Shown here piece by piece: positions 1-14,808 of a stretch of DNA of 19,052 nucleotides; the stretch's first letter is position 1; every line of letters begins with the position of its first letter. The DNA is from an uncultured Opitutales bacterium (GTDB lineage Bacteria > Verrucomicrobiota > Verrucomicrobiia > Opitutales > Intestinicryptomonadaceae), in NCBI GenBank assembly GCA_934660865.1, contig CAKUIA010000024.1, positions 1-19,052 on the forward strand, read 5' to 3'. The position numbers and the translations under genes were made by a program. Below the pieces are notes generated by a model. It did not search any database. It was not told the origin of the DNA and saw only the letters and a program-made list of their open reading frames with translations.

Positions 1-138
1 TGGAGATTTACGAAAAACAACGGGATAACCGAAGGCTTCCATAGGAAGATGAAACTTATACAACGTCGAGCCTACGGCTATAGAAACTTTGAAAATTACA
101 GACTGAGAGTACTCGTAGAATGCGGGGTAAAACTATGA
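1..138 (+). CDS. ISL3-family (DDE_Tnp_ISL3) transposase, C-terminal 45 codons; 5'-partial at the window edge
   Basis: Frame 1 reads WRFTKNNGITEGFHRKMKLIQRRAYGYRNFENYRLRVLVECGVKL*, stop TGA at 136-138. The NGxxEGxxxKxKxIxRxAYGYRNFxNxxxRxL block is the conserved C-terminal signature of ISL3/IS204/IS1001/IS1165 transposases. Confidence 0.8.
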   Translation, partial: WRFTKNNGITEGFHRKMKLIQRRAYGYRNFENYRLRVLVECGVKL

Positions 139-189
139 AAAACAAATTACATAAAAATCGCTATTCCACAACCTTTGGGGTTGACCCCG
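1..189 (+). mobile_element. ISL3-family insertion sequence, 3' (right) end only; the element continues left of the window
   Basis: Holds the transposase C-terminus (1-138) plus 51 nt of non-coding tail ending ...ATTCCACAACCTTTGGGGTTGACCCCG at 189. Positions 26-189 are the reverse complement of 18889-19052 (156/164 identical by hand alignment, no indels). Similarity stops abruptly at 189/18889, which I take as the IS terminus. Confidence 0.8.
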
Positions 190-210
190 GTTTAGGCGGG
201 TGCGCAAAAC

Positions 211-247
211 AAAAAATGCGTTAAGAAAACTTAACGCATTTTTTTGA
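211..247 (-). terminator. Rho-independent terminator downstream of tRNA-Gly (symmetric, could act in both directions)
   Basis: AAAAAATGCGTTAAG-AAAA-CTTAACGCATTTTTTT: an 11-bp perfect stem (215-225 / 230-240) with a 4-nt loop, flanked by an A-run and a T-run. It starts 3 nt past the tRNA 3' end on the minus strand. Confidence 0.75.
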
Positions 248-250
248 AAG

Positions 251-327
251 TGGAGCGGGCAATGAGTCTCGAACTCACAACCTCGACCTTGGCAAGGTCG
301 CGCTCTAGCCAATTGAGCTATGCCCGC
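251..327 (-). tRNA. tRNA-Gly (anticodon GCC), CCA encoded
   Basis: The minus strand reads GCGGGCA TA GCTC AATTGGCTA GAGC G CGACC TTGCCAA GGTCG AGGTT GTGAG TTCGAGA CTCAT TGCCCGC T CCA. This gives a full cloverleaf with a 7-bp acceptor stem, anticodon loop TT-GCC-AA, TTCGAGA T-loop and discriminator U. Length 77 nt. Confidence 0.93.
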
Positions 328-338
328 AGGTGAAGTAA

Positions 339-378
339 ATTATTCGCCCAATACTGCACATTTATTTTATCGTGTCAA
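339..378 (-). promoter_or_regulatory. Candidate sigma70-type promoter for tRNA-Gly, embedded in the last codons of the upstream CDS
   Basis: The minus strand has a perfect TTGACA (378-373), a 16-nt spacer, then CAGTAT (356-351). An alternative, better -10 (AATAAT, 344-339) has a poor -35. Hexamer matching only. Confidence 0.3.
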
Positions 379-1228
379 GCTCGAAAATGAAATTTTTTCG
401 GAAATTTTCGGGTACGGGGTAAAATCCGTTTTTGTCTATTTCTTTTGCGGTGCTGTCGTTAAGCAATGCCTTTGCAAAAGCCTTAACTTTTTTTGCGTTT
501 TTCGCCTTAAATGCAATGTAAAAGGGCAAATTCATAACATAGTCGTTATTGTGCATGCTTTCGCACGAGGGCAAAACCGAATACAATTTGCCGCCGTCGG
601 CGTTTGTGGCCGAAACGGGGATTGTTTTTGTGCCCTCCATGGGCTTGCCTACAATGGCTATTGTGGAATTGTTGTTTTCGACAAACCTTTTAAGATCGGA
701 TTTATCGTCGATAATGTTTACCCATTCTCCCAAATTGAAGCCCGCAAAAGCCTTGTTTTTGAAAAGTTCTACAACAAGGTTGTCGTGAAGCCCCGTTGTT
801 GCCGCCTGTATGGAGTGCATATTTTTTATGCCGATATTTTGCCATTGGTCGGCCTTTAATTTTGTGCTTTTGCAGAATATGGATTTTAGCTGCTCCATGG
901 AAATCTCCCTGATTGTGTTTACGGGGTTTACAACCACAACCGCGCCCTGGTAGCACAGGGGAATAAGCTTTATGCCTTCAAGAGAGCTTTCGGTGCCGCG
1001 TATTACGGCAACAACGGCCATATCGAGATTGTCGTTCTTTAGCTCTCTAACGGCCGACATAGAGCCGCGCATATCCAACTTTAGCGGTATATTGTCGGTT
1101 TTTGCAACTTCCTGCAGGGGGGCTTGTATGGACGACGCAAGCAGGTCGGAGCCTCCAATGCTTACGCTTTCGGCCGACAGGGTAAGGGTTGCAAAAAGAT
1201 AGAAAAACGCGGTTAAATAAATTCTCAT
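362..1228 (-). CDS. Secreted PstS-family (PBP_like_2) periplasmic substrate-binding domain protein, divergent
   Basis: 288-aa ORF with N-terminal signal peptide MRIYLTAFFYLFATLTLSA/ES. Its layout parallels PstS/PhoT binding proteins: SIGGSDLL..., GAVVVVNPVNTIREISMEQLKSIF...WQNIG, ...IAIVG. The canonical phosphate-binding GGGSGTG segment is replaced by MRGSMSA. No pstCAB genes are nearby. Confidence 0.6.
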   Translation of the reverse strand: MRIYLTAFFYLFATLTLSAESVSIGGSDLLASSIQAPLQEVAKTDNIPLKLDMRGSMSAVRELKNDNLDMAVVAVIRGTESSLEGIKLIPLCYQGAVVVVNPVNTIREISMEQLKSIFCKSTKLKADQWQNIGIKNMHSIQAATTGLHDNLVVELFKNKAFAGFNLGEWVNIIDDKSDLKRFVENNNSTIAIVGKPMEGTKTIPVSATNADGGKLYSVLPSCESMHNNDYVMNLPFYIAFKAKNAKKVKAFAKALLNDSTAKEIDKNGFYPVPENFRKNFIFELDTIK

Positions 1229-1382
1229 ATCTTTGACAATATTCCATACCCGGGCAAAAGTTCAAGTTTTTTATGGCTTTACTGCAATTTGCCAACGGCG
1301 GGTTTTATTGCTTGCAAAATTGTAATTTTTACCCAAATATAGGGAATGTATTTACCTTACAAAGATTGTTAGACAACAGATT

Positions 1383-1835
1383 ATGAACGATAAAACTCTA
1401 GAATTAGTATGCGCGCAATTTGCACAAAAGCGCGAATATCTGGTTCCGGCGCTGCAAACGGTTCAGGAGAAAGACGGCTATATTTCTCCCGAAGCCGTAG
1501 AACGGCTTGCAGTGCATTTCGGAATCACCAAAAGCGACATTTATTCGGTGGCGAGTTTTTACGCCCAATTTAAATTTGTAAAGCCCGGCAAACACGTTGT
1601 TAAGGTTTGCAGGGGCACCGCCTGCCACGTTAAAGGCTCGGCAAACCTGTTGGCGGCAATAGAGCAAAGATTGGGCATAAAAGAGGGCGAAACAACCCCC
1701 GACGGCCTTGTTTCGATAGAGCGCGTTGCGTGCTTGGGCGCCTGCGCGCTGGCCCCCGCCATTGTTATAGACAACCAGGTTTACGCAAGGGTAAGCTTGC
1801 CACAACTTGAAAAGCTTTTGGGAGAGTTGAAGTAA
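1383..1835 (+). CDS. nuoE: NuoE/HydC/HndA-type thioredoxin-like [2Fe-2S] subunit (24-kDa family)
   Basis: 150 aa with the family's four-Cys pattern, VCRGTACHVKG ... VACLGACALAPAIVID. Its stop overlaps the next start (TAATG at 1833-1837). Confidence 0.85.
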   Translation: MNDKTLELVCAQFAQKREYLVPALQTVQEKDGYISPEAVERLAVHFGITKSDIYSVASFYAQFKFVKPGKHVVKVCRGTACHVKGSANLLAAIEQRLGIKEGETTPDGLVSIERVACLGACALAPAIVIDNQVYARVSLPQLEKLLGELK

Positions 1836-3688
1836 TGAAAGTTTTAAGCGATAAGATTATTGCCGAAAGCAAAAAGGCATGGGAGGATTTTTCGTCTCCC
1901 AAAAAGGCGAGGGTTATGGTGGGCGCCGCAACCTGCGGAAGAGCCGCCGGCGCGCTCGACATTATTGCGGAATTTAAAAAGCAGCTGCAAAAGGCGGGCA
2001 TTGCCGACAAGGTAGAGCTTGTGGAAACGGGCTGCATAGGCCTTTGCTATGCCGAGCCTTTAGTTGAGGTTCGCGCCGAAAATGCCGACCCAATTTTATA
2101 CGGCAAAGTTGCCGTTGCCGATGTCGAAAAGCTTGTTTTCGGGCACCTGCAAAAGGGCGAAATTTTAAAGGGCAAGGCCTTGGCCGTTATGGGCGAAAAC
2201 GCCGTAGACGGCATAGTTCCCTTTAAAGAGCACGAAATGATAAAGCTGCAAAAGCGCTTTGTACTTAGAAACACCGGGCTTATAAACCCCGAATCTTTCG
2301 AGCACTATGTGGCGCGCGGCGGGTATAGTGGGCTGCAAAACGCACTGAATTTAACCCCCGAAGACCTTATCGAGCAGATGAAAAAAAGCGGTTTGCGCGG
2401 CCGCGGCGGCGCGGGCTTTTTAACGGGGCTAAAATGGAGCTTTGCGGCGGCTTCGAAAGCCGACGAAAAATATATTATATGCAACGCCGACGAGGGCGAC
2501 CCCGGGGCCTTTATGGACAGATCCGTTTTAGAGGGCGACCCGCACTCGGTAATAGAGGGCCTTATGATAGGCGCGTATGCGATAGGCTCGCATTGCGGCT
2601 ACATATATGTGCGTTCGGAGTACCCTCTGGCGATTGAGCGCCTGCAAATTGCAATAGCCCAAGCCGAAGAGGCGGGCATTTTAAAGAATAAAGACGGCTA
2701 CTATTTTGAAGTTAGGATAAAAAAGGGCGCCGGTGCCTTCGTTTGCGGCGAAGAAACTTCGCTTATGGGCTCCATAGAGGGCGTTAGGGCAATGCCCAGG
2801 CCTAAGCCGCCTTTCCCCGCAAACAGGGGATTGTTCGGCAAGCCCACAAACATAAACAATGTCGAAACACTGGCTGCGGTATCGTCGATAATGCGCGAGG
2901 GCGCCGACTATTACGCCTCTCTTGGCACCGAAAAAAGCAAGGGCACAAAAACCTTTTCGCTTGCGGGCAAAATAGCCAGAACGGGCCTGATAGAAGTTGA
3001 AATGGGCATAAAGCTTGGCGACATTATCAACAAAATAGGAGGGGGCTGCGCCGACGGCAAAAAGTTTAAGGCCGTGCAAACCGGCGGGCCTTCGGGCGGC
3101 TGTCTTGTTCCCGAGCATTTGGATATTTCGGTAGACTACGAAAGCTTGGGAGCGGTCGGCTCCATTATGGGGTCGGGCGGCATGGTTGTAATGAACGAAG
3201 ACTCGTGCATGGTTGAGGTTGCAAAGTTCTTCCTTTCGTTTACCGAAAACGAGTCGTGCGGCAAGTGCGTTCCGTGCAGAATGGGCACGCAGCATGCCTT
3301 GAGGATTCTCGAAAAGATAACTTCGGGCGAAGCTACCATGGAGGATTTGGATACGCTCGAGAAAATCGCATTTACAATGAAACAGTCGTCGTTATGCGGC
3401 CTGGGGCAAACGGCTCCAAACCCGATTTTAACTACGCTAAGGTATTTTAAGGACGAGTACATCGCCCATATTAGAGACAAAAAATGCCCCGCAAAAGCGT
3501 GCAGAAAACTTGTGCACTTTAAGATTAATCCCGAAAAGTGCAAGAGCTGCTCGATGTGCTCGAGAGCCTGCCCGACGGGCGCAGCCCACGGCGAAAGGGG
3601 CAAGCCCTATTGCATAGACTCGGCAAAATGTATATCGTGTTCGGCATGCTATCAGGCGTGCAAATTCTCGGCGGTGGAAAGGTACTAA
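1835..3688 (+). CDS. nuoF: NuoF/HydB/HndC-type NAD(H)- and FMN-binding Fe-S subunit (51-kDa family) with extra N- and C-terminal Fe-S domains
   Basis: 617 aa. Motifs: GRGGAGFLTGLKW (FMN site), ICNADEGDPGAF (NADH site), ESCGKCVPCRMG (N3-type 4Fe-4S). The C-terminal 2x[4Fe-4S] ferredoxin has CKSCSMCSRACP and CISCSACYQACK. The N-terminal thioredoxin-like domain shows only three Cys (C34, C67, C71). Confidence 0.9.
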   Translation: MKVLSDKIIAESKKAWEDFSSPKKARVMVGAATCGRAAGALDIIAEFKKQLQKAGIADKVELVETGCIGLCYAEPLVEVRAENADPILYGKVAVADVEKLVFGHLQKGEILKGKALAVMGENAVDGIVPFKEHEMIKLQKRFVLRNTGLINPESFEHYVARGGYSGLQNALNLTPEDLIEQMKKSGLRGRGGAGFLTGLKWSFAAASKADEKYIICNADEGDPGAFMDRSVLEGDPHSVIEGLMIGAYAIGSHCGYIYVRSEYPLAIERLQIAIAQAEEAGILKNKDGYYFEVRIKKGAGAFVCGEETSLMGSIEGVRAMPRPKPPFPANRGLFGKPTNINNVETLAAVSSIMREGADYYASLGTEKSKGTKTFSLAGKIARTGLIEVEMGIKLGDIINKIGGGCADGKKFKAVQTGGPSGGCLVPEHLDISVDYESLGAVGSIMGSGGMVVMNEDSCMVEVAKFFLSFTENESCGKCVPCRMGTQHALRILEKITSGEATMEDLDTLEKIAFTMKQSSLCGLGQTAPNPILTTLRYFKDEYIAHIRDKKCPAKACRKLVHFKINPEKCKSCSMCSRACPTGAAHGERGKPYCIDSAKCISCSACYQACKFSAVERY

Positions 3689-3694
3689 TATATT

Positions 3695-6076
3695 ATGGCA
3701 AAATTTAATTTGACTATCGACGGCGTTATTGTTGAGGCCCAAACGGGCATGACCGTTTTGCAGGCGGCCAGAAACGCGGGCTTGTTCATTCCCTCGCTTT
3801 GCGCGCACGAAGAGCTTGAACCCTACGGGGCCTGCAGGCTTTGCGTTGTGGAAATAGAAAAGATGAGGGGAACTCCCACGGCATGCACAACTCCGGCCGC
3901 CGAGGGAATGGTTGTAAGGACAAACACCGAGCAGCTGCAAAAACAGCGCCAAAGAACGCTTGAGCTTTTGATGAGTGCGCACCCGTCGCCGTGTTTTTCG
4001 TGCGATTCGCGTTTGGACTGCGAAAGCGTAAAGAAAACCCCCACAAAGTCGGGCGTGTCCACAAGGTGCGGCGCGTGCTCGAACCGCCCTGTTTGCGGGC
4101 TAAGGGGCATAGCAATGGGCTCGTTTACAAGGGAAATGAATTTGCCCGTAAGCTACGACATTTCGAAAATCGACAAGCGCGACCCGTTTATAGACCGCGA
4201 CTACAACCTTTGCGTATTGTGCGGCATTTGCGTTAGAACGTGCGCAAAAATGCACAACGGCAAACCCGCAATTTCGATTTCAAGCCGCGGCAAGTTTGCA
4301 AAGGTAACAAGCGCATTCGACAACCCGTGGAGCAACGAGGAATGTGTGTTCTGCGGAGCCTGCGTAGACGAGTGCCCCACCGGTTCGCTTACCGACAGGT
4401 GGTCGAAGTGGTACGGAGCCGCCGAAAGCGAGTGCATTGGCAACTGCGAATTTTGCGGCAAAAAGTGCGAGCTTAAATTGAAGATTAAAGAGGGGCGCTT
4501 AATGGGCACTTCGGCAAAGGCCTTAAAGCCCGAAAACGCATTGTGCGTAAACGGCAAGTTTGTATATCCGCAGGTTGTAAACGCAAAGCACAGGCTTGGC
4601 CTTAGCTCGGTTTTGCGCGGGCGCGACCTTGTTCCCGCCGAAGAATTGGAACTTGTAGAATATGTTGTCGAAATTCTTAAAAACTCGCAAAACAAGCTTT
4701 TGATTTTGGCAAGCTCCATTGTTTGCGACAATGTAAAGTCGCTGCTTAAAGGCTTGGCCGAATTTAAAGGCGGGCATGTCGAATTTATAGAGTCGGGCTC
4801 GAAAGAACTGCCAAACGAGCTTGCCGAACGCATTAAAAACGGCGAGTTTAAAGACGTATTTTCGGTCGGCGACTATATCCCCGAAAATTTGGCCGACAGC
4901 TTCGAAAACATCTTTGTTGCCGACTTCCTTTCCGCCAAAATACAGAAAAAGGCAAAGGCGGTTATTGCCGCACGCGTGCTAGACGAGCGCAACGGCAAAA
5001 TAAGGCCCTTCGGCAAATCGCTTAATTTCGAGGTTGTGCTAAGCTGCATTTGCTCGTCGTTGGGCGTAAAGGGCGCCATTATCGAGAAGAAAGCGCCTCC
5101 CGCCCACAGCAGGCCCTATTCGCACGGCATTTTGCCGAGATACTTCTTCGGGCACAGCCTTGTGGAATTGGTGCCCGACTTGGAGCTTTTGGGCTTCGAA
5201 AAAGCCCCCGAAAAGGAGGACAATGTCGACAAATTCAACGCATGCCAAGTGCTTGAAAACGTTATGCTTGCCCCCAATTTCCATGCGCTAAAGATAAAGG
5301 CGCCCGAAATTGCAAAATACGCAAAGGCGGGGCAGTTTGCGGTATTGCTGGCAAACAGGCACAGCGAGCGCTCGCCCTTTACAATTATAGACTGGAACGC
5401 CCAAGAAGGGTGGATAAGGTTTATAATAGAGGAAGTCGGCCGTTCCAGCGCGGAATTGGGCGCAAAGAAGGCGGGCGACTATATTGCGCACGTAAGCGGT
5501 CCTTTGGGAACTCCCATAGACTTAAGCGAAGTAAAAAGCACCGATTCGGTTCTGCTTAGCGGCGGCTGCTACGGAATAGGGGCGGTATATCCCATAGCAA
5601 GAGAGCTTAAAAAATTGGGCGCAAAAGTTGCGGTTTCAATCGAGGCTTCAAGCTCGTACCTTCTTTATTTCGAAAACGAACTAAAATCGGTTTGCGACGA
5701 GCTTATAGTCTCTACCCGAGACGGCACAAAAGGCCTTAAGGGCGGCTGTGCCGATGTCATGAAATCGCGCAAAGACCGGTTCGATATGTTTGTTTCGATA
5801 GGCTGCGTGTTTATGATGAAACAGGCTTCGAAAGTTGCCGCCGAAATACAAAAGAAAACCCTGTGCGCGCTAAACCCGATTATGGTAGACGGCACGGGTA
5901 TGTGCGGAGCCTGCCGCGTAAGCGTGGGCGGCGAGGTAAAGTTTGCCTGTGTAGACGGGCCTTTCTTCGACCTAAAGGGCGTAGATTTCGACGAGCTTGC
6001 AAAGCGCAGAAGCGCGTATACGCTGCTGGAAGTAGACGCAATGCCGCGCCACCACAACGGAAAGTGCCACCAATAA
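3695..6076 (+). CDS. Fusion protein: NuoG/HydA-like N-terminal Fe-S module + Molybdop_Fe4S4-type domain with a truncated downstream domain + NfnA/SudB/PyrK-like FAD/NAD(P)-binding [2Fe-2S] module
   Basis: 793 aa. Plant-type 2Fe-2S: C36, C47, C50, C64. His-ligated cluster: H96-x3-C100-x2-C103-x5-C109. Two ferredoxin motifs: C173-x2-C-x2-C-x3-C and C217-x2-C-x2-C-x3-CP. Molybdop_Fe4S4-type pattern C251-x2-C254-x3-C258...C284 (LCVNGKF). About 230 aa with no recognisable cofactor motifs. From about aa 514 an NfnA-like module: LAPNFHALKIKAPEIAKYAKAGQFAVL, RSPFTI (FAD), LLSGGCYGIGA (NAD(P)), and C-terminal MVDGTGMCGACRV...FACVDGPFF (2Fe-2S). Confidence 0.8.
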   Translation: MAKFNLTIDGVIVEAQTGMTVLQAARNAGLFIPSLCAHEELEPYGACRLCVVEIEKMRGTPTACTTPAAEGMVVRTNTEQLQKQRQRTLELLMSAHPSPCFSCDSRLDCESVKKTPTKSGVSTRCGACSNRPVCGLRGIAMGSFTREMNLPVSYDISKIDKRDPFIDRDYNLCVLCGICVRTCAKMHNGKPAISISSRGKFAKVTSAFDNPWSNEECVFCGACVDECPTGSLTDRWSKWYGAAESECIGNCEFCGKKCELKLKIKEGRLMGTSAKALKPENALCVNGKFVYPQVVNAKHRLGLSSVLRGRDLVPAEELELVEYVVEILKNSQNKLLILASSIVCDNVKSLLKGLAEFKGGHVEFIESGSKELPNELAERIKNGEFKDVFSVGDYIPENLADSFENIFVADFLSAKIQKKAKAVIAARVLDERNGKIRPFGKSLNFEVVLSCICSSLGVKGAIIEKKAPPAHSRPYSHGILPRYFFGHSLVELVPDLELLGFEKAPEKEDNVDKFNACQVLENVMLAPNFHALKIKAPEIAKYAKAGQFAVLLANRHSERSPFTIIDWNAQEGWIRFIIEEVGRSSAELGAKKAGDYIAHVSGPLGTPIDLSEVKSTDSVLLSGGCYGIGAVYPIARELKKLGAKVAVSIEASSSYLLYFENELKSVCDELIVSTRDGTKGLKGGCADVMKSRKDRFDMFVSIGCVFMMKQASKVAAEIQKKTLCALNPIMVDGTGMCGACRVSVGGEVKFACVDGPFFDLKGVDFDELAKRRSAYTLLEVDAMPRHHNGKCHQ

Positions 6077-6094
6077 ACTTAAACGGAAAAGCAA

Positions 6095-7519
6095 ATGGAC
6101 AATAACCAAAATCCACAAAGAAAAATAAAGGCTTCGGGGCTTCCGAGAACGGCAATGCCCGAGCAAGATCCCAAGCGCAGGGCCACAAATTTCGAGGAAG
6201 TTCCCTACGGGTTTTCGTTTCAAGACGCCGTAAACGAGGCTACGCGCTGCCTGCAATGCCCCAAGCCCAGATGCGTTTCGGGCTGTCCGGTAAACATAAA
6301 CATACCCGCTTTCATACACGAAATCGCGCTTGAAAACCCGAAGGGCGCCGCCGAAAAGCTTAAGCTGCAAACGGCATTGCCCGCGGTATGCGGCAGGGTT
6401 TGCCCGCAGGAAAACCAGTGCGAGGGCCACTGTGTTTTGGGCATAAAGGGCAAGCCCGTGGCCATCGGCTCGCTGGAGCGCTTTGCCGCCGACTATGTGC
6501 GCGAAAACAATATAGAGGAACTGCCCCAAAAAGCGCCGTCTACGGGCAAGAAAGTTGCAATTATCGGCTGCGGGCCCGCAGGCATTACGGCTGCGGCAAC
6601 CCTTGCAATTTCGGGGCACGAGGTAGAGGTTTTCGAGGCTTTGCACCTGCCAGGCGGCGTGCTTAGCTACGGCATTCCGCAGTTTAGGCTTCCCAAAAGC
6701 ATTGTAATGTACGAGGTCGAGCAAATAAAAAAGCTGGGCGTAAAAGTGCATTTAGACTATCTTGTAGGCCGAATGAAAACCGTAGAAGAGCTTATAAAAG
6801 ACCTTAAGTTCGATGCCGTGTTTATAGGTTCGGGCGCAGGTTTGCCGCAGTTTATGCACATCGAGGGCGAAAGCAGCGTGGGCGTATTTTCGGCAAACGA
6901 ATTCCTTACAAGGTTTAACCTTATGAAGGCCTATAATTTCCCCGAATTCGGTACAACGCCCATAAGGGCAAAGCACATAGTAACCGTAGGCGGCGGCAAC
7001 GTTGCAATGGACTCGTGCAGAACGGCGCTAAGAATAGGGGCAAAGTCTACTTTGGTATACAGAAGGGCAAGAGAGCAAATGCCCGCGCGCGCCGAAGAGG
7101 TTCACCACGCCGAGCAAGAGGGCGTAAACTTCAGCCTTTTAACCAATCCCAAAAGGATTATCGCCGACGAACACGGCAGGGTAAAGGCGATAGAGTGCAT
7201 AAAAATGGAGCTTAGCGAGCCCGACGCTTCGGGCAGGCAAAAGCCCGTCGAAATTCCCGGTAGCGAGTTCCAAATAGAGTGCGACGCCGTTGTAATTTCC
7301 ATCGGCAACAAGCCAAACCCGCTTATACCGATGACATGCAAAAACCTTGCTACAACGCCAAAAGGCACCTTGCAGGTAGACCCGGAAACATTGCAGACCT
7401 CTATGGAGGGCGTATATGCGGGAGGCGACGTTGTAAGCGGAGCTGCAACCGTAATTAGCGCAATGGGGCAGGCAAAAAAGGCCTCGGCAAACATAAACGC
7501 ATATTTGGCTTCTAAATAA
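6095..7519 (+). CDS. nfnB: NfnB/SudA-type NADPH-dependent oxidoreductase (GltD / homotetrameric-'glutamate synthase' family)
   Basis: 474 aa. N-terminal Fe-S motifs CLQCPKPRCVSGCPVNINIPAFI and LPAVCGRVCPQENQCEGHCVLG. Dinucleotide folds KVAIIGCGPAGITAA and VTVGGGNVAMDSCRTA. C-terminal VYAGGDVVSGAATVI. It lies 18 nt downstream of the NfnA-containing fusion gene. Confidence 0.88.
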   Translation: MDNNQNPQRKIKASGLPRTAMPEQDPKRRATNFEEVPYGFSFQDAVNEATRCLQCPKPRCVSGCPVNINIPAFIHEIALENPKGAAEKLKLQTALPAVCGRVCPQENQCEGHCVLGIKGKPVAIGSLERFAADYVRENNIEELPQKAPSTGKKVAIIGCGPAGITAAATLAISGHEVEVFEALHLPGGVLSYGIPQFRLPKSIVMYEVEQIKKLGVKVHLDYLVGRMKTVEELIKDLKFDAVFIGSGAGLPQFMHIEGESSVGVFSANEFLTRFNLMKAYNFPEFGTTPIRAKHIVTVGGGNVAMDSCRTALRIGAKSTLVYRRAREQMPARAEEVHHAEQEGVNFSLLTNPKRIIADEHGRVKAIECIKMELSEPDASGRQKPVEIPGSEFQIECDAVVISIGNKPNPLIPMTCKNLATTPKGTLQVDPETLQTSMEGVYAGGDVVSGAATVISAMGQAKKASANINAYLASK

Positions 7520-8293
7520 ATGCGCATACTAATCAGCAACGACGACGGCATTGGTTCGCCGTTTTTAAGGAGCACGGCAGCCGCCCTTTCCGAATTGGGC
7601 GAAGTTAAAATTGTAGTTCCCTCGAAAGAGCAAAGTTGGATAGGCAGGGCGTTTTCGCGCCATGCCGAGCTTAAGCACGAAAGGGTAAGCGACTTTTACG
7701 GCTTCGACTGCCACACCATAAGCGGAACGCCGTCGGACTGCGTAAACATTGCAATAAACCACTTGTACGAGCCCAATGCCAAGCCCGATATTGTGTTTTC
7801 GGGCATAAACATAGGGCACAACATAGCGTTTCCGCTTATACTAAGCTCGGGAACATTCGCCGCGGCGGTAGAGGGTGCGGGGCATTTAATACCGTCGTTT
7901 GCGGTGTCTTTCCAGCTAAGGAGCGAGTTTTACGAAATGTGCAGAATAAGGCACCAAAGCTCGCCCGATTTAGACCGCGAACTGGGCGTAGTCTGCGAAA
8001 ATTGCGCCGAATTTGTAGGCTCGGTAATGCAGCGCAAAGACGAGATTAAAAAGGGCGACGTTTTCAATATAAACTATCCCTCCGAATACGACGGCTCGCC
8101 CGTTTGTATGTGCAAAACCGCAAACATAAAAATGGAAAGCTTCTACAAAAAGAACGAAAACGGCAACTATGTGTTTAAGTATAAGCTCGGTATGAAGCAA
8201 AAAAGCGAAAACTTCGAGCCTACCGACATAGACATGCTTTCCAATTCAAAGGCGTGCTGCTCGAGAATAAATATATTCGAATTTGCAAGATAG
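7520..8293 (+). CDS. surE: 5'/3'-nucleotidase SurE
   Basis: 257 aa starting MRILISNDDGIGSPFL (the SurE hallmark xILxSNDDG), plus SGINxGxN (FSGINIGHN). The ATG directly abuts the nfnB stop (TAAATG). Confidence 0.9.
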   Translation: MRILISNDDGIGSPFLRSTAAALSELGEVKIVVPSKEQSWIGRAFSRHAELKHERVSDFYGFDCHTISGTPSDCVNIAINHLYEPNAKPDIVFSGINIGHNIAFPLILSSGTFAAAVEGAGHLIPSFAVSFQLRSEFYEMCRIRHQSSPDLDRELGVVCENCAEFVGSVMQRKDEIKKGDVFNINYPSEYDGSPVCMCKTANIKMESFYKKNENGNYVFKYKLGMKQKSENFEPTDIDMLSNSKACCSRINIFEFAR

Positions 8294-9030
8294 TTTTTGT
8301 GAAAGCTTTACTAAAGGGCTTTTTGGATTTGTTGTTTGCCCGCAGGTGTTTGGCGTGCGGCAAACTAAACCCGAAAGGTCCTTTTTTGTATCTGTGCAAA
8401 GCCTGCGCCGAAACGCTTGATTTTAATTTAAACGCAAGGTGCCTGCGCTGTTGCGAACCTTTGATTGGTTCTGACAAAGACAGCACCGACACTTGCGCAA
8501 AATGCTTCGGCACAAAATTTTACTTTGAAGAAAGCCGATGTGCCTGCCTTTACAAAGGGGCCGTCTGCGAGTTGGTAAAAGAGCTAAAATACCGAAAAGG
8601 CCTGTATGTTTTGCCCGACATTGCAAAGATTTTCGCGCAAAATCCCCAATATTTCGATTTTGTAGACAACGCCTATTTAGTTGCAGTTCCCCTGCACGGC
8701 AAAAGGCTTAAAAAGCGCGGCTACAACCAAAGCCGCAAAATAGCCGAAATTTTGGCAAGGCAAAATCCGTCTATTAGGGGCGTTTTGGATTTGCTTGTAA
8801 GAGTAAAAGACACCACAACCCAAACAATGCTAGACCGCCAAAACAGGGTGCAAAATGTAATGAACGCATTTGCCGTAAACCCGAAAGCCGAATGCGATAA
8901 AACCGCAAAACTGGTTTTGCTGGACGATGTTATGACAACGGGAGCCACCCTTAACGAGTGCGCAAAAACTTTGAAAAAAGCGGGCTATAAAAACGTGTCG
9001 GCAATGTGCTTTGCAAAAAGGCCGCTTTAA
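8254..9030 (+). CDS. comF: ComF family protein (phosphoribosyltransferase-domain, ComFC-like)
   Basis: N-terminal double zinc-ribbon Cys pairs: CLACG...CKAC...CLRCC...CAKC. C-terminal PRTase motif VLLDDVMTTGATLNE. The ATG at 8254 overlaps surE by 40 nt. An in-frame GTG at 8299 (VKALLKGFLDLLF...) just after the surE stop is an equally plausible start. Confidence 0.8.
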   Translation: MLLENKYIRICKIVFVKALLKGFLDLLFARRCLACGKLNPKGPFLYLCKACAETLDFNLNARCLRCCEPLIGSDKDSTDTCAKCFGTKFYFEESRCACLYKGAVCELVKELKYRKGLYVLPDIAKIFAQNPQYFDFVDNAYLVAVPLHGKRLKKRGYNQSRKIAEILARQNPSIRGVLDLLVRVKDTTTQTMLDRQNRVQNVMNAFAVNPKAECDKTAKLVLLDDVMTTGATLNECAKTLKKAGYKNVSAMCFAKRPL

Positions 9031-9056
9031 TATATGCGGCAAATGGCAAAATAAAA

Positions 9057-9083
9057 CCCGCCTTAAAAAGATTTTAGGGCGGG
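9057..9083. terminator. Bidirectional rho-independent terminator between the convergent comF and TPR genes
   Basis: CCCGCCTTAAAA-AGA-TTTTAGGGCGGG: a 12-bp stem (one G-U pair) with a 3-nt loop, an A-rich left flank (AAATAAAA) and a T-rich right flank (CAATTTGTTTATTTT). Confidence 0.7.
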
Positions 9084-9091
9084 CAATTTGT

Positions 9092-9757
9092 TTATTTTAA
9101 ATGTTTTAGGTTTTCCAAGTTCAAGGCTTTTGCCTCGTCGAAAATTGCGCCTTCGCGTATTTTTGCCTTGTACAAATATTCCCTTAAAATGTTGTGGGTA
9201 AATTTGTATTCTTTTAGCCTATAAAAGGCTTTTGCGTCGTACAAATACGCGCGGCTTGCCCAATATTCCAGCTTGTAGTACAAAACATACACGCGCTCGA
9301 AATAGGGGTGCGATTTAAGGTACTCCTTTTGGTCGTAGTACGAAAGCCCCGTTTTATACAAAGCCTGCGCCTGAATTGCACCCGAATAGTGCTTGTCTAG
9401 GGCAACTTTTAGGTAGCAGTTTCTAGCTTCGTCGTATTTGCCCGCAAAACGCAGAACGTCGCCGCGCAAAATCAGAATCGCCCAGCGTTCGAAAACCTTT
9501 TCGGGGGCAAGCTTTACCGCCTGTTGCGAAAGATACAGGGCGTTTTCGTAGTCTTTTTCGTCGAGCTTGTTAAGGGCAAGCTCGTAGTTTTTGCAGGCGG
9601 CGTTCCAGCTTAAAATTTCCTCGGCGTTAAGCGAAACAGAGCCGTCGGGGGTGGAAATTTTCGGCCTGTGGCTCGGGTTGCTTAAATCGAAACTGTATTC
9701 TTGCGCCGTAAGCGAAAATGCCGCCAAAAGCATTATAAAATTTATTAAAATTTTCAT
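9092..9757 (-). CDS. Secreted tetratricopeptide-repeat (TPR) protein, function unknown
   Basis: 221 aa with signal peptide MKILINFIMLLAAFSLTA/QE. Repeated TPR-like A/Y/L helices: YENALYLSQQAVKLAP, GKYDEARNCYLKVAL, YLKSHPYFERVYVLY, ASRAYLYDAKAFYRL. The start overlaps the dus stop (ATGA at 9754-9757). Confidence 0.6.
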   Translation of the reverse strand: MKILINFIMLLAAFSLTAQEYSFDLSNPSHRPKISTPDGSVSLNAEEILSWNAACKNYELALNKLDEKDYENALYLSQQAVKLAPEKVFERWAILILRGDVLRFAGKYDEARNCYLKVALDKHYSGAIQAQALYKTGLSYYDQKEYLKSHPYFERVYVLYYKLEYWASRAYLYDAKAFYRLKEYKFTHNILREYLYKAKIREGAIFDEAKALNLENLKHLK

Positions 9758-10704
9758 AGTCTTTCGTTGTATATTAGATTTGTAATTTCTTCAAATGTTT
9801 CGCATTTAAGCAAATTTATGCGTATTTGCTTAAAGCCGCGCGCGCCCTTTAAAAATTTAACAATTTGCGCTTTTAGGTGCGATAATTTCGATTTTGTTAT
9901 TTCAAAAGAGTCTAGCTCGCATTGCCTTAGGTAGTCTTTTGCAAGTTTTAACGCCGCCTTTTCGGGCGGGGGGCAAAAGGGCAAATTGTTTATTTTTGCC
10001 TTTACCCTTTCAAAAACCCACGGGTCTATAAGGGCGGCTCTGCCAATCATAAACCCATAGCATTTAGAATGTTGCAAAAATTCTGCACTAAGTTTTTCAA
10101 CCGAGCCGTTGCCTATAAGCGGCACTTTGCAAAGTTGGGCACATTCCTCTATAATGTCCCAGTCGGCAGGGCCTGTGTAGCCCTGCTTTGCGGTTCTGCC
10201 GTGCAGGGTTATCATCTTTGCGCCCGCCTTTGCCAATTCGGGTATAACTTCTTTTGCAACAATGTGTTGCGAGTCGAACCCCGTGCGCATTTTCGCCGTA
10301 AGAGGCGTTTTTTTAAGCACCCCGGAAACGGTTTTTATTATCTGCACCATTTTTTCGGGCGTCTTTAAAAGGGCAGCTCCCGCATTTGCGCCGACTGCGT
10401 TTTGCGCCGGGCAGCCAAAATTTATGTCTATAAATGCGGGAGCAAAATTTTCCTCTATATAAAGCGCGCATTCCGCGATTTTTTCGGGCTGGCTGCCGAA
10501 AATCTGAATGCCGTTAATGCCCTCGTTTTCGGCCTGTCTTAGCCTTTCTAAAACGGGAACGGCCCCGCTTAAAACGGCGTTGCTGTGCACAAACTCGCTT
10601 ATCGAAAAGTCGGCGCCCATCGACTTTAAAAGCCTGCGGTAGGCGGCGTCGCTATAGCCCGCCATGGGCGCTAAAAACAGGCAGTTTTTAAAGAGGAAAT
10701 CCAT
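9754..10704 (-). CDS. tRNA-dihydrouridine synthase (Dus family)
   Basis: 316 aa. Dus-family motifs LAPMAGYSDAAYRRL, IDINFGCPA (catalytic Cys region), ITLHGRT and PLIGNG. Confidence 0.88.
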   Translation of the reverse strand: MDFLFKNCLFLAPMAGYSDAAYRRLLKSMGADFSISEFVHSNAVLSGAVPVLERLRQAENEGINGIQIFGSQPEKIAECALYIEENFAPAFIDINFGCPAQNAVGANAGAALLKTPEKMVQIIKTVSGVLKKTPLTAKMRTGFDSQHIVAKEVIPELAKAGAKMITLHGRTAKQGYTGPADWDIIEECAQLCKVPLIGNGSVEKLSAEFLQHSKCYGFMIGRAALIDPWVFERVKAKINNLPFCPPPEKAALKLAKDYLRQCELDSFEITKSKLSHLKAQIVKFLKGARGFKQIRINLLKCETFEEITNLIYNERL

Positions 10705-10707
10705 CGG

Positions 10708-11343
10708 CTAAAATTCCACATAGCCGCAAAGCAGTTTTATTGCAAATACGCCTATGTTGTAGCTTAGGTGCGCTATTATCGGCGGCAAAAGCGACTGCGT
10801 TTTGTTTAATTTGTTAAAGCGCATAAAGTAGAAGAAAAGCGAGTTTATAAATATAAACGAGGTTGAAAACAACGCCTTGCCCGTAAAGTTAAGCGAAAAG
10901 TTTGCAGGCGAAATTGCCGGTGCGTTTTCGGGTATGCTATAATCCCACAAAAATGGGTGCATTAAAGCGAACAAAAGCGAGAACGCGAAAATCGAGGCGT
11001 ATAGGGCAAGTTTGCCTTTGTTTTTTACAACCAAATAGCCCCTGAAAACAAGCTCTTCTATAAAGGCCGCCGACACCCACGAAAATACCGCAAAAACCCC
11101 CACTTTGCTCTGCTGGTCGGCAAAGCCGAACTTATATTCCAAAACGGTTTGGGCAAAAAGCAGCGCAACAGCCCCGGTGGCGGCAAGGCACAATGCGGCT
11201 TTCGGCGCAAACGACGCCCCCGAAAAAGCACCCTTTCTTTGAGCCTTGTTTTTTTCGAAATACTTTGCGTCGTCCAGCCACATTTTAAAAAGATATAGGC
11301 AAGCGCCGAAAAACAAGATGGAATATAGCGTGTTGTCCTGCAT
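10708..11343 (-). CDS. CPBP-family intramembrane glutamic endopeptidase (CAAX protease / Abi family)
   Basis: Motifs EELVFRGYL, FALMHP and HLSYN within a multi-TM protein. The ORF track extends it to 11901, but residues upstream of M187 (ATG at 11343-11341) are antisense to the polyprenyl synthase gene. The start is set at 11343; an alternative ATG lies at 11283. The stop lies 3 nt from the dus start. Confidence 0.7.
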   Translation of the reverse strand: MQDNTLYSILFFGACLYLFKMWLDDAKYFEKNKAQRKGAFSGASFAPKAALCLAATGAVALLFAQTVLEYKFGFADQQSKVGVFAVFSWVSAAFIEELVFRGYLVVKNKGKLALYASIFAFSLLFALMHPFLWDYSIPENAPAISPANFSLNFTGKALFSTSFIFINSLFFYFMRFNKLNKTQSLLPPIIAHLSYNIGVFAIKLLCGYVEF

Positions 11344-11404
11344 GCGACAAATAACAGCACAAGATTTTCGAAAATTCAATTTTTTAATTGCAAGAAATGC
11401 GCGT

Positions 11405-12388
11405 ATGCTAGAGTATTTACCGTATATGGAAATCGCAGCAGACGCTTTGAAAAGTTTTACGGCGACAATGTCTAAACAGTTGTCGGCATATAGGCGTACA
11501 TTGGCTTTGCAGGCAACCGCTTTCGACCGAAAGCTGAAAAAATACGCGGGCGATTCCGTTTCTTCGAAGGGCAAGTCTATCAGGCCCATGCTTGTTTTCG
11601 CCTCGTCGTGGGAAAGCGGCCTTTCAAAAACCATCTTAAACAGGGCGTGCGCGGTGGAGCTTATACACCTGGCAAGCCTTATACACGACGACATTATCGA
11701 CAACGCAATGCTCAGGCGCAACGAGCCTACAATGTTCAAAAAATACGGCGTTAAGCTGTCGCTTTTGTTGGGCGACGCGATTTTTGCGCATGCAATGTCC
11801 ATTATGGCGAACGACGACGCCGAAATACAAAAAAAGGGCGTTGCGGCGGTAAAGACATTGTGCGAGGGCGAAATAATACAAAGCATTTTCGACGCCGACA
11901 AAAAAACGTCGTTCGACGACTACTACGACATTATCGACAAAAAGACGGCCGTGCTGTTCAAGCTTGCGTGCCATTTCGGCGGTGCGGCCTGCGGCGACAA
12001 AAAGTGGGCGCTGTGCGCCGAAAAGGCGGGGCGCGAAATGGGTATGGCCTACCAGATTTTCGACGATATTTGCGACTGGATTGCCACCGAAAGCAACGGC
12101 GGCAAAACCACCGGCACCGATTTGCTTTCGGGCAAGCGCACTCTGCCGATTTTGCTGCTCGAAAAATGCGCCGCGCAAAAAGACAAAAAGCTGCTTGCCG
12201 GCTATGTTAAAAATCGCGATTCAAATTCGGTAAAATCGCTTTTTTGCGACTACAAAATTTTGGAGCAGTGCAAACTGCAATTCGACGGAAAGCTTGCCGC
12301 GGCAAAAAAAGCGGTTTTAAAGTTCGATACCGCCGCCGCCGCAAAAATGGCGGAATTTTGCGACGCGCTGTCGGGCTTGCTGGTATAG
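11405..12388 (+). CDS. Polyprenyl diphosphate synthase (trans-IPPS, long-chain IspB/HepT-like)
   Basis: Both aspartate-rich motifs are present: LIHDDIIDN (first DDxxD) and QIFDDICD (second DDxxD), plus GKSIRPML upstream. The start is uncertain. The ORF opens at 11246 but would then overlap the divergent CPBP gene. In-frame ATGs at 11405 (MLEYLPY...) or 11426 (MEIAADAL...) give the usual roughly 50-aa spacing before GKxxRP. Confidence 0.75.
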   Translation: MLEYLPYMEIAADALKSFTATMSKQLSAYRRTLALQATAFDRKLKKYAGDSVSSKGKSIRPMLVFASSWESGLSKTILNRACAVELIHLASLIHDDIIDNAMLRRNEPTMFKKYGVKLSLLLGDAIFAHAMSIMANDDAEIQKKGVAAVKTLCEGEIIQSIFDADKKTSFDDYYDIIDKKTAVLFKLACHFGGAACGDKKWALCAEKAGREMGMAYQIFDDICDWIATESNGGKTTGTDLLSGKRTLPILLLEKCAAQKDKKLLAGYVKNRDSNSVKSLFCDYKILEQCKLQFDGKLAAAKKAVLKFDTAAAAKMAEFCDALSGLLV

Positions 12389-12389
12389 T

Positions 12390-13421
12390 ATGAGAAGTTT
12401 CGGTGCAATAGGCGTTTCCTGCAAAACTGCGCCGAACGAAATTTTGGCGCAACTTTCGCTTAAGGGCGAAAGGCTTTTGTTTGCCGACAAAGCTTTCGAA
12501 AAGGCGGGAGTTTGCGAATTTGCGGTAGTTTCGACATGCAACAGGGTCGAGTTTTACTTTGCGGACGAAAGCGACGAGATATTCGAAAAGGTATGGAGCG
12601 CCATAGGCGAAATATACGTCGAAAACACGGAAGTTTTTAGGGCGCATTCCAGGGAATATTTCGGGCAGGCCGCTGTAATGCACATTTTCGAAGTTTCGTG
12701 CGGCATAGATTCCGAGCTTGCTGGCGAAACCGAAATTTTGGGGCAGATAAAATCGGCGTATTCTGTTTACCACGAAAGGGGGCACTGCAAATTTGTGCTG
12801 AACAAGGTGTTCCAAAACGCCATACATGTTGGCAAATGGATTCGCGCAAACACGCGTATAGGTGCGGGCAAAATCACCATAGGCGCCGTTGCCGCCGAGC
12901 TTGCCGCAAGGATTTTCGACGACGTAAAAAAGGCCGACATTCTCCTTTTAGGCTCTGGGCAAGTCGGGCAAGACGTAGCGCAGTCCATATCCGTAAGGGG
13001 CGGCGGCATTTTGGCGGTTGCAAGCCGCTCTTTCGAAAACGCGCTAAAAGTTTGCGTAAATTCGGGCTCGTTTGCTCTGCCGCTGGAAAACGCCCTGCAG
13101 GATTTGTCTCGGTGGGACATAATAATTTGCGCAATGGCGCTGGAAAGCCCCATACTGTTGGCCAGCTCCGTAAAAAAAGCCATGGCAAACAGAACAAAGC
13201 CGCTGTTTATAATAGATTTGGGAATGCCCAAAAACGCCGAAGACTTGTGCTCGAAAATAGACGGCGTATACCTTTACAATTTGGGCGACCTTTCGCGCAT
13301 TTCGAACGAAAACAGAATGTATCTCGAAGGCGAAATCGCCGAGGCGAAATTGGAATTGCAGGCGCGCAGCAAAAGCCTATTTACGCGCTTGTTCGGCGAG
13401 GGCGAAAATTTCGGCGCCTAG
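12390..13421 (+). CDS. hemA: Glutamyl-tRNA reductase, short form (343 aa)
   Basis: Catalytic-Cys motif VSTCNRVEFY, ETEILGQIK, and NADPH-binding ILLLGSGQVGQ. The ATG lies 1 nt after the polyprenyl synthase stop. Only about 40 residues follow the NADPH domain. Confidence 0.85.
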   Translation: MRSFGAIGVSCKTAPNEILAQLSLKGERLLFADKAFEKAGVCEFAVVSTCNRVEFYFADESDEIFEKVWSAIGEIYVENTEVFRAHSREYFGQAAVMHIFEVSCGIDSELAGETEILGQIKSAYSVYHERGHCKFVLNKVFQNAIHVGKWIRANTRIGAGKITIGAVAAELAARIFDDVKKADILLLGSGQVGQDVAQSISVRGGGILAVASRSFENALKVCVNSGSFALPLENALQDLSRWDIIICAMALESPILLASSVKKAMANRTKPLFIIDLGMPKNAEDLCSKIDGVYLYNLGDLSRISNENRMYLEGEIAEAKLELQARSKSLFTRLFGEGENFGA

Positions 13422-14123
13422 TTTTGACAGCTGCCTGTCCAGCTTTTTTGCCTGCGGGCAAAACGAGTTTAAATACAGCCAAAACGAGACGGAGTGGTCC
13501 ATAAACTTTTCGTGCGCAAGCTCGTGGCAAACAATGTAGTTTTGCAAATCTTTGTCCAAAAGCGCAACGCGCCAGTTAAACGAAAGCGTGCCGTTCGACG
13601 ATCTCGAAGCCCAGCGGCTTTTTTGCGAGCGTATTTCTATGCTTTTATAGGCAATATTCAGGGCTTTTGCCTTTTCGCACACCGCATTTTGCAGCGCCTT
13701 TTTTGCGAAAGCGGCAAAAAGTCTTTCAAGCTCGAAATCGTTTCGGTATACGAACAGAATTTCGCCTGCGGGAATGTTTTCTATTACGGTGCCGAGCGTT
13801 TCGCTTTTTTCGGTTTTTAAAATCAGGCTTTTGCCGAACGCGAAAATGCGGTTTTGCCTTTTAAGGTATTGCGCCAAAGTTTGCCGCGGGGTACATTGCG
13901 CAAGCTTTTGGGCTATCCATTTTGCGTTTTCCAAAAAAAATTCGCGCGCGTTTGCAAGCGGAACGTAGCGCGGCTTTGTAATAAAAACTTCGCCGTTTTT
14001 CGAAACCGAAATTTTTATGTGTGTGCTGTGCGCCGAATTTTTTACCGTTGCCGAAATATTTACGGGAACGCCGTCGAGCACAACTTCGGTAGAAAAAATT
14101 TTTGTGCTACTGCTTTGGGGCAT
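13377..14123 (-). CDS. YgjP/DUF45-type (M48-like) zinc metallohydrolase
   Basis: 248 aa with the family's C-terminal motif YIVCHELAHEKFMDHSVSFW (HExxH followed by H). The 3' end overlaps the hemA 3' end by 45 nt (convergent). The start overlaps the mazG 3' end by 17 nt. Confidence 0.7.
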   Translation of the reverse strand: MPQSSSTKIFSTEVVLDGVPVNISATVKNSAHSTHIKISVSKNGEVFITKPRYVPLANAREFFLENAKWIAQKLAQCTPRQTLAQYLKRQNRIFAFGKSLILKTEKSETLGTVIENIPAGEILFVYRNDFELERLFAAFAKKALQNAVCEKAKALNIAYKSIEIRSQKSRWASRSSNGTLSFNWRVALLDKDLQNYIVCHELAHEKFMDHSVSFWLYLNSFCPQAKKLDRQLSKLGAEIFALAEQARK

Positions 14124-14709: not shown

Positions 14710-14808
14710 TTTTTTATAAATTTCTGCGCACAATATAAAATGCCGCAAGGCGTTTTTAAAGCAAAAATTAAATTGCTTTTGCCGTGCATATTCTTTGAAT
14801 TTTCACAG

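Follow-up and report, generated by a model that had tools for sequence, protein, structure and literature searches.

An operon with a BfuA–NfnS fusion gene as a candidate hybrid of Bfu-type and Nfn-type electron-bifurcating systems

Strict anaerobes use electron bifurcation to balance NADH, NADPH and ferredoxin without ATP cost. Here we describe a fusion gene and its operon in a 19,052-nucleotide (nt) stretch of DNA, referred to throughout as the window, from an uncultured Opitutales bacterium (GenBank assembly GCA_934660865.1, contig CAKUIA010000024.1, positions 1 to 19,052 of the forward strand). The gene encodes a protein of 793 amino acids (aa) in which an iron–sulfur (Fe-S) subunit of the BfuA type is joined through a remnant of a molybdopterin domain to a complete NfnS, also called NfnA. 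Pfam and NCBIfam searches confirmed each domain element that a preliminary description, made from the sequence alone, had listed for this protein. The fusion gene (bfuA~nfnS, the tilde marking the fusion) is the third of four tightly packed genes in the order bfuC, bfuB, bfuA~nfnS and nfnL. The features of the operon are as follows, with the parts of the fusion protein listed below its gene; pLDDT is the predicted local distance difference test score of AlphaFold2, FAD is flavin adenine dinucleotide, FMN is flavin mononucleotide and FNR is ferredoxin–NADP+ reductase.

1383–1835, + strand: bfuC, NuoE/HydC-like, thioredoxin-like [2Fe-2S] subunit (150 aa; PF01257 at 157.9 bits, and NuoE family models)
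1835–3688, + strand: bfuB, NuoF-like FMN/NADH subunit of the bifurcating type (617 aa), with an N-terminal thioredoxin-like domain and a C-terminal 2x[4Fe-4S] domain
3695–6076, + strand: bfuA~nfnS fusion open reading frame (ORF; 793 aa, ATG start, no internal stops)
3695–3934, + strand: [2Fe-2S] domain, cluster A1 (aa 1–80; ligands C36, C47, C50, C64)
3980–4096, + strand: His-ligated [4Fe-4S] motif (A2), H96-x3-C100-x2-C103-x5-C109, followed by a second triad, C125-x2-C128-x5-C134
4184–4399, + strand: two ferredoxin-type [4Fe-4S] sites, A3/A4 (aa 164–235; C173/176/179/183 and C217/220/223/227)
4427–4576, + strand: Molybdop_Fe4S4-type [4Fe-4S] site, A5 (aa 245–294; ligands C251, C254, C258, C284)
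4577–5209, + strand: vestigial molybdopterin-oxidoreductase domain (aa 295–505), one compact alpha/beta domain with no catalytic residues
5210–5245, + strand: linker (aa 506–517), with pLDDT <50 at aa 507–510; the point at which the gene is split in relatives
5246–6076, + strand: NfnS/NfnA module (aa 518–793), comprising an FNR-like FAD domain, a nucleotide-type domain with an altered pocket and an Asp/3Cys [2Fe-2S] site
6095–7519, + strand: nfnL (NfnB/GltD-like), NADP(H)/FAD subunit with two [4Fe-4S] sites (474 aa; TIGR01316 at 586 bits, PF14691, PF07992)

The fusion ORF is real and under selection. An assembly chimera, or a missed stop or frameshift joining two genes, is vanishingly improbable: we found no support for it, and it is ruled out by independent assemblies, by the lack of insertions and deletions, by a codon-position bias that runs across the junction and by more than 100 full-length clusters of homologues. 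Contigs from two independent sequencing runs (ERR7384927 and SRR25448460) encode a 793-aa protein with 96% identity and have identical neighbours. Compared with these loci, the 2382-nt ORF has 0 indels, and 164 of 208 substitutions fall at third codon positions; 156 codon changes are synonymous and 35 non-synonymous, synonymous changes being in excess in each of three regions of the ORF. The uninterrupted frame of the preliminary description therefore stands. In a database of 5.8 billion proteins, at least 120 clusters (90% identity) share the architecture: the best 120 were all full length (759–855 aa, coverage 98–100%). Named sources among them include Opitutales/Verrucomicrobia, Desulfobulbus, Desulfonatronum, Desulfogranum and Omnitrophica, and cluster members carry the database label 'sulfide/dihydroorotate dehydrogenase-like FAD/NAD-binding protein'. 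The fusion had been called unusual; it is so against the characterised Nfn enzymes but not in sequence space, where it is widespread. An AlphaFold2 model of the fusion, built from a 55-sequence alignment, had a mean pLDDT of 84 and a predicted template modelling score (pTM) of 0.82.

The genes upstream of the fusion encode the other two Bfu subunits. BfuB matched PF01512 and PF10589 and a C-terminal Fer4 domain at residues 561–615. Its top solved relatives are all bifurcating and align over nearly their full length: Acetomicrobium mobile NiFe-HydB (7t2r_B, 771 bits), Caldicellulosiruptor saccharolyticus (Csac) NfnB (9n5u_B, 719 bits) and several HydB and StnB proteins (613–715 bits), whereas the non-bifurcating FdsB and Nqo1 reached at most 405 bits and aligned over the core only. 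A NuoF core with extra cluster-binding domains is what characterises BfuB within the Bfu family, and the product of bfuC, whose stop overlaps the bfuB start, has the character of BfuC. By these matches, BfuBC is a Bfu-type core as defined by Schut et al, 2022 (PMC9304861). The thioredoxin-like domain of BfuB (window 1835–2200, aa 24–100) has three Cys in a C...C-x3-C arrangement like that of Csac NfnB, whose site holds Zn; the pattern in A. mobile HydB is instead C-x4-C...C-x3-C, of the [2Fe-2S] type.

Downstream of the fusion, NfnL is nearest to T. maritima NfnB (4ylf_B, 506 bits) and P. furiosus NfnI-L (475 bits), and all eight cluster Cys are conserved. K212 aligns, by our own count, with R201 of the T. 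maritima protein; the bifurcating FAD of NfnL, or L-FAD, is reported to be marked by a positive charge close to the flavin (PMC12018979). A specialisation of NfnL was considered and dropped, as we found no residue that separates Bfu-linked from free NfnL. With a BfuBC pair and a canonical NfnL as neighbours, the fusion belongs to what reads as a hybrid of two bifurcating systems rather than to a decorated NfnA. The preliminary description had overlooked this operon context, together with the Cys triad C125/C128/C134 and the altered NAD(H) loop of NfnS that are described below.

The N-terminal 294 aa of the fusion hold ligands for one [2Fe-2S] and four [4Fe-4S] clusters (A1–A5) as well as a lineage-specific Cys3 site. 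Invariance of ligands was judged in an alignment of 55 full-length homologues. The A1 domain matched PF13510 (Fer2_4; aa 3–78, 69.9 bits), with C36, C47, C50 and C64 invariant, and the A3/A4 region matched PF13187, PF22117 and PF00037 over aa 164–233, again with all eight Cys invariant. A5 matched PF04879 at aa 251–294 with 21.1 bits, slightly below the Pfam cut-off of 22.7; its ligands are nonetheless invariant, and the profile of the region matches the Fe4S4 domain of formate dehydrogenase (Fdh), Nap and NuoG. Both the NuoG/HydA-type Fe-S N-terminus and the Molybdop_Fe4S4-type cluster that had been placed at aa 251–284 are thus borne out. The ligands of the A1 [2Fe-2S] and of the A2 His-ligated [4Fe-4S] cluster are those by which BfuA is recognised in the Bfu family, its electron-feeding role here being a prediction.

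The second triad begins 15 residues past the His-cluster motif. All seven residues of the A2 motif and the triad (H96, C100, C103, C109, C125, C128 and C134) are invariant, and it is because of the triad that PF10588, the NuoG His-cluster domain, matched at profile positions 1–26 of 40 only (aa 85–110). AlphaFold2 gave pLDDT values <50 at aa 117–130, in the triad region. The duplication is present in 16/16 Nfn-linked BfuA sequences, fused and split alike. We did not find it in a HydA-like homologue that is not linked to Nfn (L057, same alignment) or in the aligned HydA, FdsA and A. mobile HydA sequences. Judged by this distribution, the triad is a lineage-specific mark of Nfn-linked BfuA. In Csac NfnA (9n5u_A), residues 11–105 align with window residues 5–102, residues 106–502 form an NfnL-like domain and residues 589–701 align with window residues 124–235, so that the triad insert lies at the exact site of the NfnL-like domain in the type-1 Nfn-Bfu enzymes.

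This coincidence of sites would fit an enzyme that is wired through NfnL, as in NfnABC/Stn. The Cys3 site beside A2 would then bind an extra Fe-S cluster fed by the distal [4Fe-4S] cluster of NfnL, L-FAD would be a simple non-bifurcating entry point for NADP(H), and the S module would serve chiefly for docking; with Fd for ferredoxin, the overall reaction would be that of NfnABC, NADH + Fd(red) + 2 NADP+ <-> NAD+ + Fd(ox) + 2 NADPH. The invariance of the triad and its restriction to this lineage point the same way, and A2 of Thermococcus sibiricus (Tsi) NfnA has been described as a Y-junction with three electron-transfer branches (PMC12018979). We nevertheless consider such wiring unlikely. 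It does not explain why NfnS, rather than NfnL, is the fused partner, or why the NAD pocket of S carries invariant, lineage-specific substitutions. NfnL moreover keeps, by our alignment count, a positive charge (K212) of the kind reported for bifurcating forms, and the triad provides three Cys only, the fourth ligand not being identified.

The middle of the protein is a confidently predicted, compact alpha/beta domain at aa ~300–460, with AlphaFold2 block-mean pLDDT values of ~90 or more over most of it. A profile of aa 236–513 matched FdhF of the hydrogen-dependent CO2 reductase (HDCR) in two pieces only, positions 10–122 aligning with FdhF 7–125 and positions 166–248 with FdhF 417–501. Absent in comparison with FdhF are ~290 residues, including the catalytic selenocysteine (Sec)/Cys region, and the whole of domain IV. 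In the Pfam search the window protein matched neither PF00384 nor PF01568 (domain IV), and Desulfobulbus-branch homologues exceeded the PF00384 cut-off solely over the ends of the profile. The preliminary description had considered this segment vestigial and too short to be a molybdenum or tungsten bis(pyranopterin guanine dinucleotide) (Mo/W-bisPGD) domain, and the two-piece match, which is not that of a complete catalytic domain, agrees with it. By its profile matches, aa 295–505 is a truncated PF00384, what remains of a Mo/W-bisPGD domain after an internal deletion, and is non-catalytic. The protein lacks the complete PF00384 and PF01568 domains and the Fdh dyad of the Mo/W-bisPGD oxidoreductases and falls outside that family.

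By fold, the first ~500 residues resemble R. capsulatus FdsA, R. aestuarii FdsA, A. mobile NiFe-HydA and NuoG, and a non-catalytic 'Fdh/NuoG-like' domain has been described in Csac NfnA (PMC11829005). Of the three regions of the ORF, the middle one has the largest proportion of non-synonymous changes (19/71 changed codons). Searched alone (aa 290–513) against a representative library of 1.84 billion proteins, the domain gave 3 matches, a number that reflects a divergence too great for a single-sequence search and does not indicate prevalence.

The C-terminal part of the fusion is a complete NfnA module with the FAD/NAD(P) fold, as had been proposed. It matched NCBIfam NF004862 (NfnA family) at aa 518–792 with 292 bits against a cut-off of 220, and the PyrK-type 2Fe-2S domain PF10418 at aa 727–763 with 41.8 bits; the [2Fe-2S] ligands D732, C737, C740 and C752 are invariant. 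P. furiosus NfnI-S (5jca_S) matched the module with E = 3e-63, and the last ~270 residues of the model superpose on 5jca_S and on T. maritima 4ylf_A with a template modelling (TM) score of 0.87 each. The FNR-like FAD fold, the Asp/3Cys [2Fe-2S] site and the adjacent NfnL/NfnB gene are those of the NfnS family.

The NAD(H) pocket of the module departs from the canonical one. Where free-standing NfnS has a GG[GA]xGxAP loop and a GP loop, the window has GGCYGIG, GC and E650 (GGCYG at residues 623–627, E650 and C704; nt 5567–5581 for aa 625–629, 5642–5644 for E650 and 5804–5806 for C704). The changes G625C, P704C and G650E/D occur in 17/17 Bfu-linked NfnS and in 0/61 free-standing ones. The Gly-rich loop reads G-C-[YF]-G in all Bfu-linked sequences and G-G-x-G-x-A in the free-standing ones, the Pro of the 'GP' loop at position 704 is replaced by Cys, and position 650 is Glu or Asp in place of Gly/Ala. 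W567 is also found in every Bfu-linked NfnS, compared with ~5% of the free-standing ones. The Bfu-linked sequences have kept the 2Fe-2S ligands, as well as R-x-P-[FYL]-T and G-[RK]-x-[ST] as FAD motifs. In a neighbour-joining tree without bootstrap, the Bfu-linked NfnS form one clade, inside which the fused forms and L003 form a subclade. The pocket changes and the Cys triad of BfuA co-occur at every Nfn-linked locus.

On sequence grounds, the NAD(H) pocket of Bfu-linked NfnS is remodelled, and C625, C704 and E650 could be a dithiol, metal or Fe-S site. The preliminary description had the molybdopterin-like segment plug the 2Fe-2S of NfnA into the NuoG-type wire, which is plausible; the subfamily-specific changes, in the NAD(H) pocket by the S-flavin and in the BfuA triad, suggest other or additional contacts.

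Such a pocket might also be a new catalytic site, with C625 and C704 as a redox dithiol or as metal ligands by the FAD of NfnS (S-FAD). A disulfide, a persulfide or another 'X' would be reduced in the manner of P. furiosus NfnII/Xfn as the high-potential acceptor, and Bfu and NfnL would supply the electrons. Two Cys and an acidic residue in nucleotide-site loops of FNR-type folds, exclusive to the Bfu-linked forms, would be in keeping with this. An NfnS that makes no use of NAD has a precedent in NfnII/Xfn (PMC12221290), and the family was originally assayed as sulfide dehydrogenase (cited in PMC5736913). Against it, no thiol-handling genes are conserved beside the operon, whose neighbours in the window are housekeeping genes, and the lineage covers very different physiologies. 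We regard a catalytic site of this kind as improbable.

The distribution of the locus was determined in a genome scan with one genome per species, in which loci (L001, L002 and so on) were annotated with the modules of the window and prevalence is a lower bound. The order BfuC-BfuB-BfuA-NfnS-NfnL was found in at least the Desulfobulbaceae, Desulfocapsaceae, Desulfobacteraceae, Hydrogenedentes, Phycisphaerales and Syntrophorhabdus, and also in Bacteroidales, Aminicenantaceae, Coatesbacteria, Eubacteriales and others. In the archaeon Methanothrix harundinacea (L008) the order is kept within the locus only up to NfnS; the BfuC-BfuB-BfuA-NfnS cluster of this methanogen bears the same signatures and has no NfnL directly downstream. 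In Methanothrix sp. (L036), NfnL lies upstream on the opposite strand and NfnS ~1.6 kb past BfuA.

One gene encodes both BfuA and NfnS in the window and in L001, L002 and L005; in the other loci there are two separate genes side by side. The split versions that the preliminary description had proposed to look for in relatives thus exist. In L003 and L004 the split is genuine and lies at the linker: the two ORFs are in the same frame, one stop apart, and selenocysteine insertion or read-through at the junction is excluded by the TAA or TAG stop and the ribosome-binding site or restart that follows it.

The shortest split BfuA, of 555 aa, shares the truncated remnant with the window protein, and at the upper end of the range, at ~860 aa, PF00384 and PF01568 are present in full. 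Both domains, Molybdopterin and Molydop_binding, are whole in the split forms at L013:6992-9574 (Aminicenantaceae), L008:7001-9397 (Methanothrix) and L009:6172-8781 (Coatesbacteria). L013, the one long form checked, has Ser-Pro in place of the Sec/Cys-His dyad of Fdh, which excludes a functional formate dehydrogenase there. This suggests that catalysis was lost before the domain was trimmed and NfnS was fused, and the sequences suggest an evolutionary series from a dead full-length domain through a trimmed domain to the NfnS fusion.

Length also varies in BfuB. At L002:3750-6983, L003:3772-6906 and L006:1617-4787 (Hydrogenedentes, Phycisphaerales and Sedimentisphaerales), BfuB is 1045–1078 aa long, and its NuoF core is followed by Fer4_20 and Pyr_redox_2 domains (NfnL/GltD-like) that replace the C-terminal 2x[4Fe-4S] domain. 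As the L002 and L003 operons also hold BfuA and NfnS, fused or split, and a separate NfnL, their complexes would each contain two modules of the NfnL type. At L006 the contig terminates within BfuA.

Since the cofactor sets are complete in both modules, one could imagine an independent BfuABC and an independent NfnSL held together by a neutral tether, with no electron transfer between them. We judge this very improbable. A BfuABC working by itself would lack a third substrate, since BfuA brings no catalytic domain for one; the fusion and the tight synteny are kept across phyla, and the lineage-specific changes co-occur in both partners.

Our preferred reading, to which we assign a probability of roughly 60%, is that the operon encodes a new Bfu subtype in which the third-substrate module is the whole NfnSL pair, forming an Nfn-type NAD(H)/ferredoxin/NADP(H) oxidoreductase. 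The enzyme would be soluble, with four genes and five modules (BfuC, BfuB, BfuA~NfnS and NfnL), and BfuA~NfnS would be its electron-wire subunit. NfnL would dock onto the fused S module as it does in NfnSL, and the dead molybdopterin domain would be a rigid scaffold that keeps the S module beside the BfuA cluster chain. In place of free NAD(H), the BfuA wire would exchange electrons with S-FAD and [2Fe-2S], the cofactors on the S side. BfuBC would supply NAD(H) and one ferredoxin site, and NfnL would supply NADP(H) and probably a second ferredoxin site. Were the two bifurcating centres to act in series, formation of NADPH would be the thermodynamically favoured direction. We infer this electron path, and likewise the stoichiometry of the complex.

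A more explicit series arrangement can be put forward tentatively, although we consider it rather unlikely. The Bfu flavobicluster (FMN/B1/C1) and the L-FAD of Nfn would be connected through an NfnS whose NAD(H) pocket has become a Cys-ligated metal or Fe-S site, to which C625, C704 and perhaps the BfuA triad C125/C128/C134 would contribute. Confurcation at BfuBC would bring electrons from NADH and Fd(red) into the 'high-potential' branch of Nfn, and a second Fd(red) would feed the L branch. Our own simple potential balance would give a stoichiometry of ~ NADH + 3 Fd(red, 2e-) + 4 NADP+ -> 4 NADPH, with the NADP pool poised well below the Nfn equilibrium.

Several points weigh against a Bfu subtype with an NfnSL module. 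We infer that the fusion, NfnL and BfuBC form a complex from the fusion and synteny alone, and an altered Gly-rich loop is no proof that NAD(H) binding is lost. In the NADPH-oxidising direction, any entry of S-side electrons into Bfu at about the potential of NAD(H) would make bifurcation at BfuBC endergonic; the series model would then be one-directional, or the wiring different. Finally, L020:6805-9324 (Aminicenantes) encodes an NfnS of the Bfu-linked subfamily (GGCFG) and NfnL without BfuA within 7 kb, so that the subfamily is not always encoded beside Bfu genes. The S and L reading frames of L020 overlap and may represent an S~L fusion or a frameshift.

The remaining genes of the window are housekeeping genes. 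Directly after the nfnL stop (7519) surE begins (7520), and its reading frame is overlapped by comF (window 7519–9083). In a scan of positions 1100–9300, promoter and terminator sites were no more numerous than in shuffled sequence. The sole strong terminator-like hairpin, of 12 pairs, lies at 9057–9083, past comF, and the redox operon may be co-transcribed with surE and comF. A 179-aa ORF at 320–859 (+) has no family match and overlaps a 288-aa ORF at 362–1228 (-); the latter has its counterpart in the PBP_like_2 gene called on L081 and L082, two near-identical contigs, and the former is probably spurious. A 480-aa ORF at 16969–18411 had no Pfam match at E <= 1e-4.

A conserved lineage in which Bfu and Nfn subunits are fused would be a natural hybrid between two families of bifurcating enzymes, extending over Verrucomicrobia-like bacteria, Desulfobulbaceae, Planctomycetes, Hydrogenedentes, syntrophs and Methanothrix. 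If our preferred reading is true, it would bring a further subtype into the Bfu classification and provide a second natural case of coupled bifurcation modules, after class II benzoyl-CoA reductase (BCRII). It would also show a possible substitute for NAD(H) at the NfnS flavin, which bears on the question of what the 'X' of Xfn is, and the series arrangement would name a concrete partner. Annotation would need correction, as these genes are labelled dihydroorotate or sulfide dehydrogenase-like, and metabolic reconstructions could take them for ordinary NfnAB. The cultured carriers Desulfonatronum lacustre and Desulfogranum japonicum, found in the cluster search, make the system experimentally tractable.

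Nfn-type and Bfu-type enzymes have been treated as unrelated alternative solutions for the same reaction (PMC12018979), and no BfuA~NfnS type is among the four Nfn fusion patterns of Liang et al (PMC6405883). We found no description of such a fusion or of a Bfu-NfnSL operon in the literature searched, which proves nothing as to whether they are undescribed. Among known systems, the type-1 Nfn-Bfu enzymes NfnABC/Stn (Sporomusa ovata, 8oh5; C. saccharolyticus, 9n5u; T. sibiricus) share with the window the bifurcating BfuBC core, a BfuA with A1–A5-type clusters and a non-catalytic Fdh/NuoG-like domain, an NfnL-type NADP(H)/FAD module and, as predicted for the window complex, the use of NAD(H), ferredoxin and NADP(H). 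In these enzymes, however, the NfnL-like domain is embedded in BfuA and there is no NfnS (PMC9304861, PMC11829005, PMC12018979). The window fusion, by contrast, has no Pyr_redox or Fer4_20 match and stands outside type 1: a canonical NfnL stands as a subunit of its own, a full NfnS (FAD and 2Fe-2S) is fused to the C-terminus of BfuA and the triad occupies the insertion site. NfnSL/NfnAB (T. maritima, 4ylf; P. furiosus NfnI, 5jca) has in common with the window the S fold and its ligands, a canonical NfnL and the S-then-L order. It differs in that the S subunit of the Bfu-linked loci is fused or adjacent to BfuA, carries GGC[YF]G rather than the GGGxGxAP loop of free forms, GC rather than GP and Glu/Asp rather than G650, and shares an operon with BfuBC.

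P. furiosus NfnII/Xfn (5vj7) aligns to aa 519–785 and likewise has an NfnS-type subunit with an unusable, occluded NAD(H) site, its partner 'X' being unknown (PMC12221290); it forms a free heterodimer, its loop reads GAYTG and neither Bfu genes nor a fusion accompany it. NiFe-HydABCSL of A. mobile (type-3 Bfu; 7t2r/7t30) has the closest solved BfuB. Its HydA aligns with window residues 2–315 and, by fold, over ~450–526 alignment columns including the molybdopterin-like remnant, and its third substrate is also handled by extra subunits that plug into BfuA. These subunits are the S and L of a NiFe-hydrogenase, unrelated to NfnSL, and there is neither a fusion nor a second triad. The sole precedent we found for coupled modules is BCRII, which has two bifurcation modules in series (bioRxiv 10.64898/2026.04.10.717634). 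In its BamB-I a second, flavin-based bifurcating module is physically attached to a confurcating module of the HydBC type (bioRxiv 10.64898/2026.04.10.717634; PMC9304861); the second module there is of the HdrA type with a tungsten benzoyl-CoA reductase as its output, whereas the second module in the window is of the NfnSL type with NADP(H).

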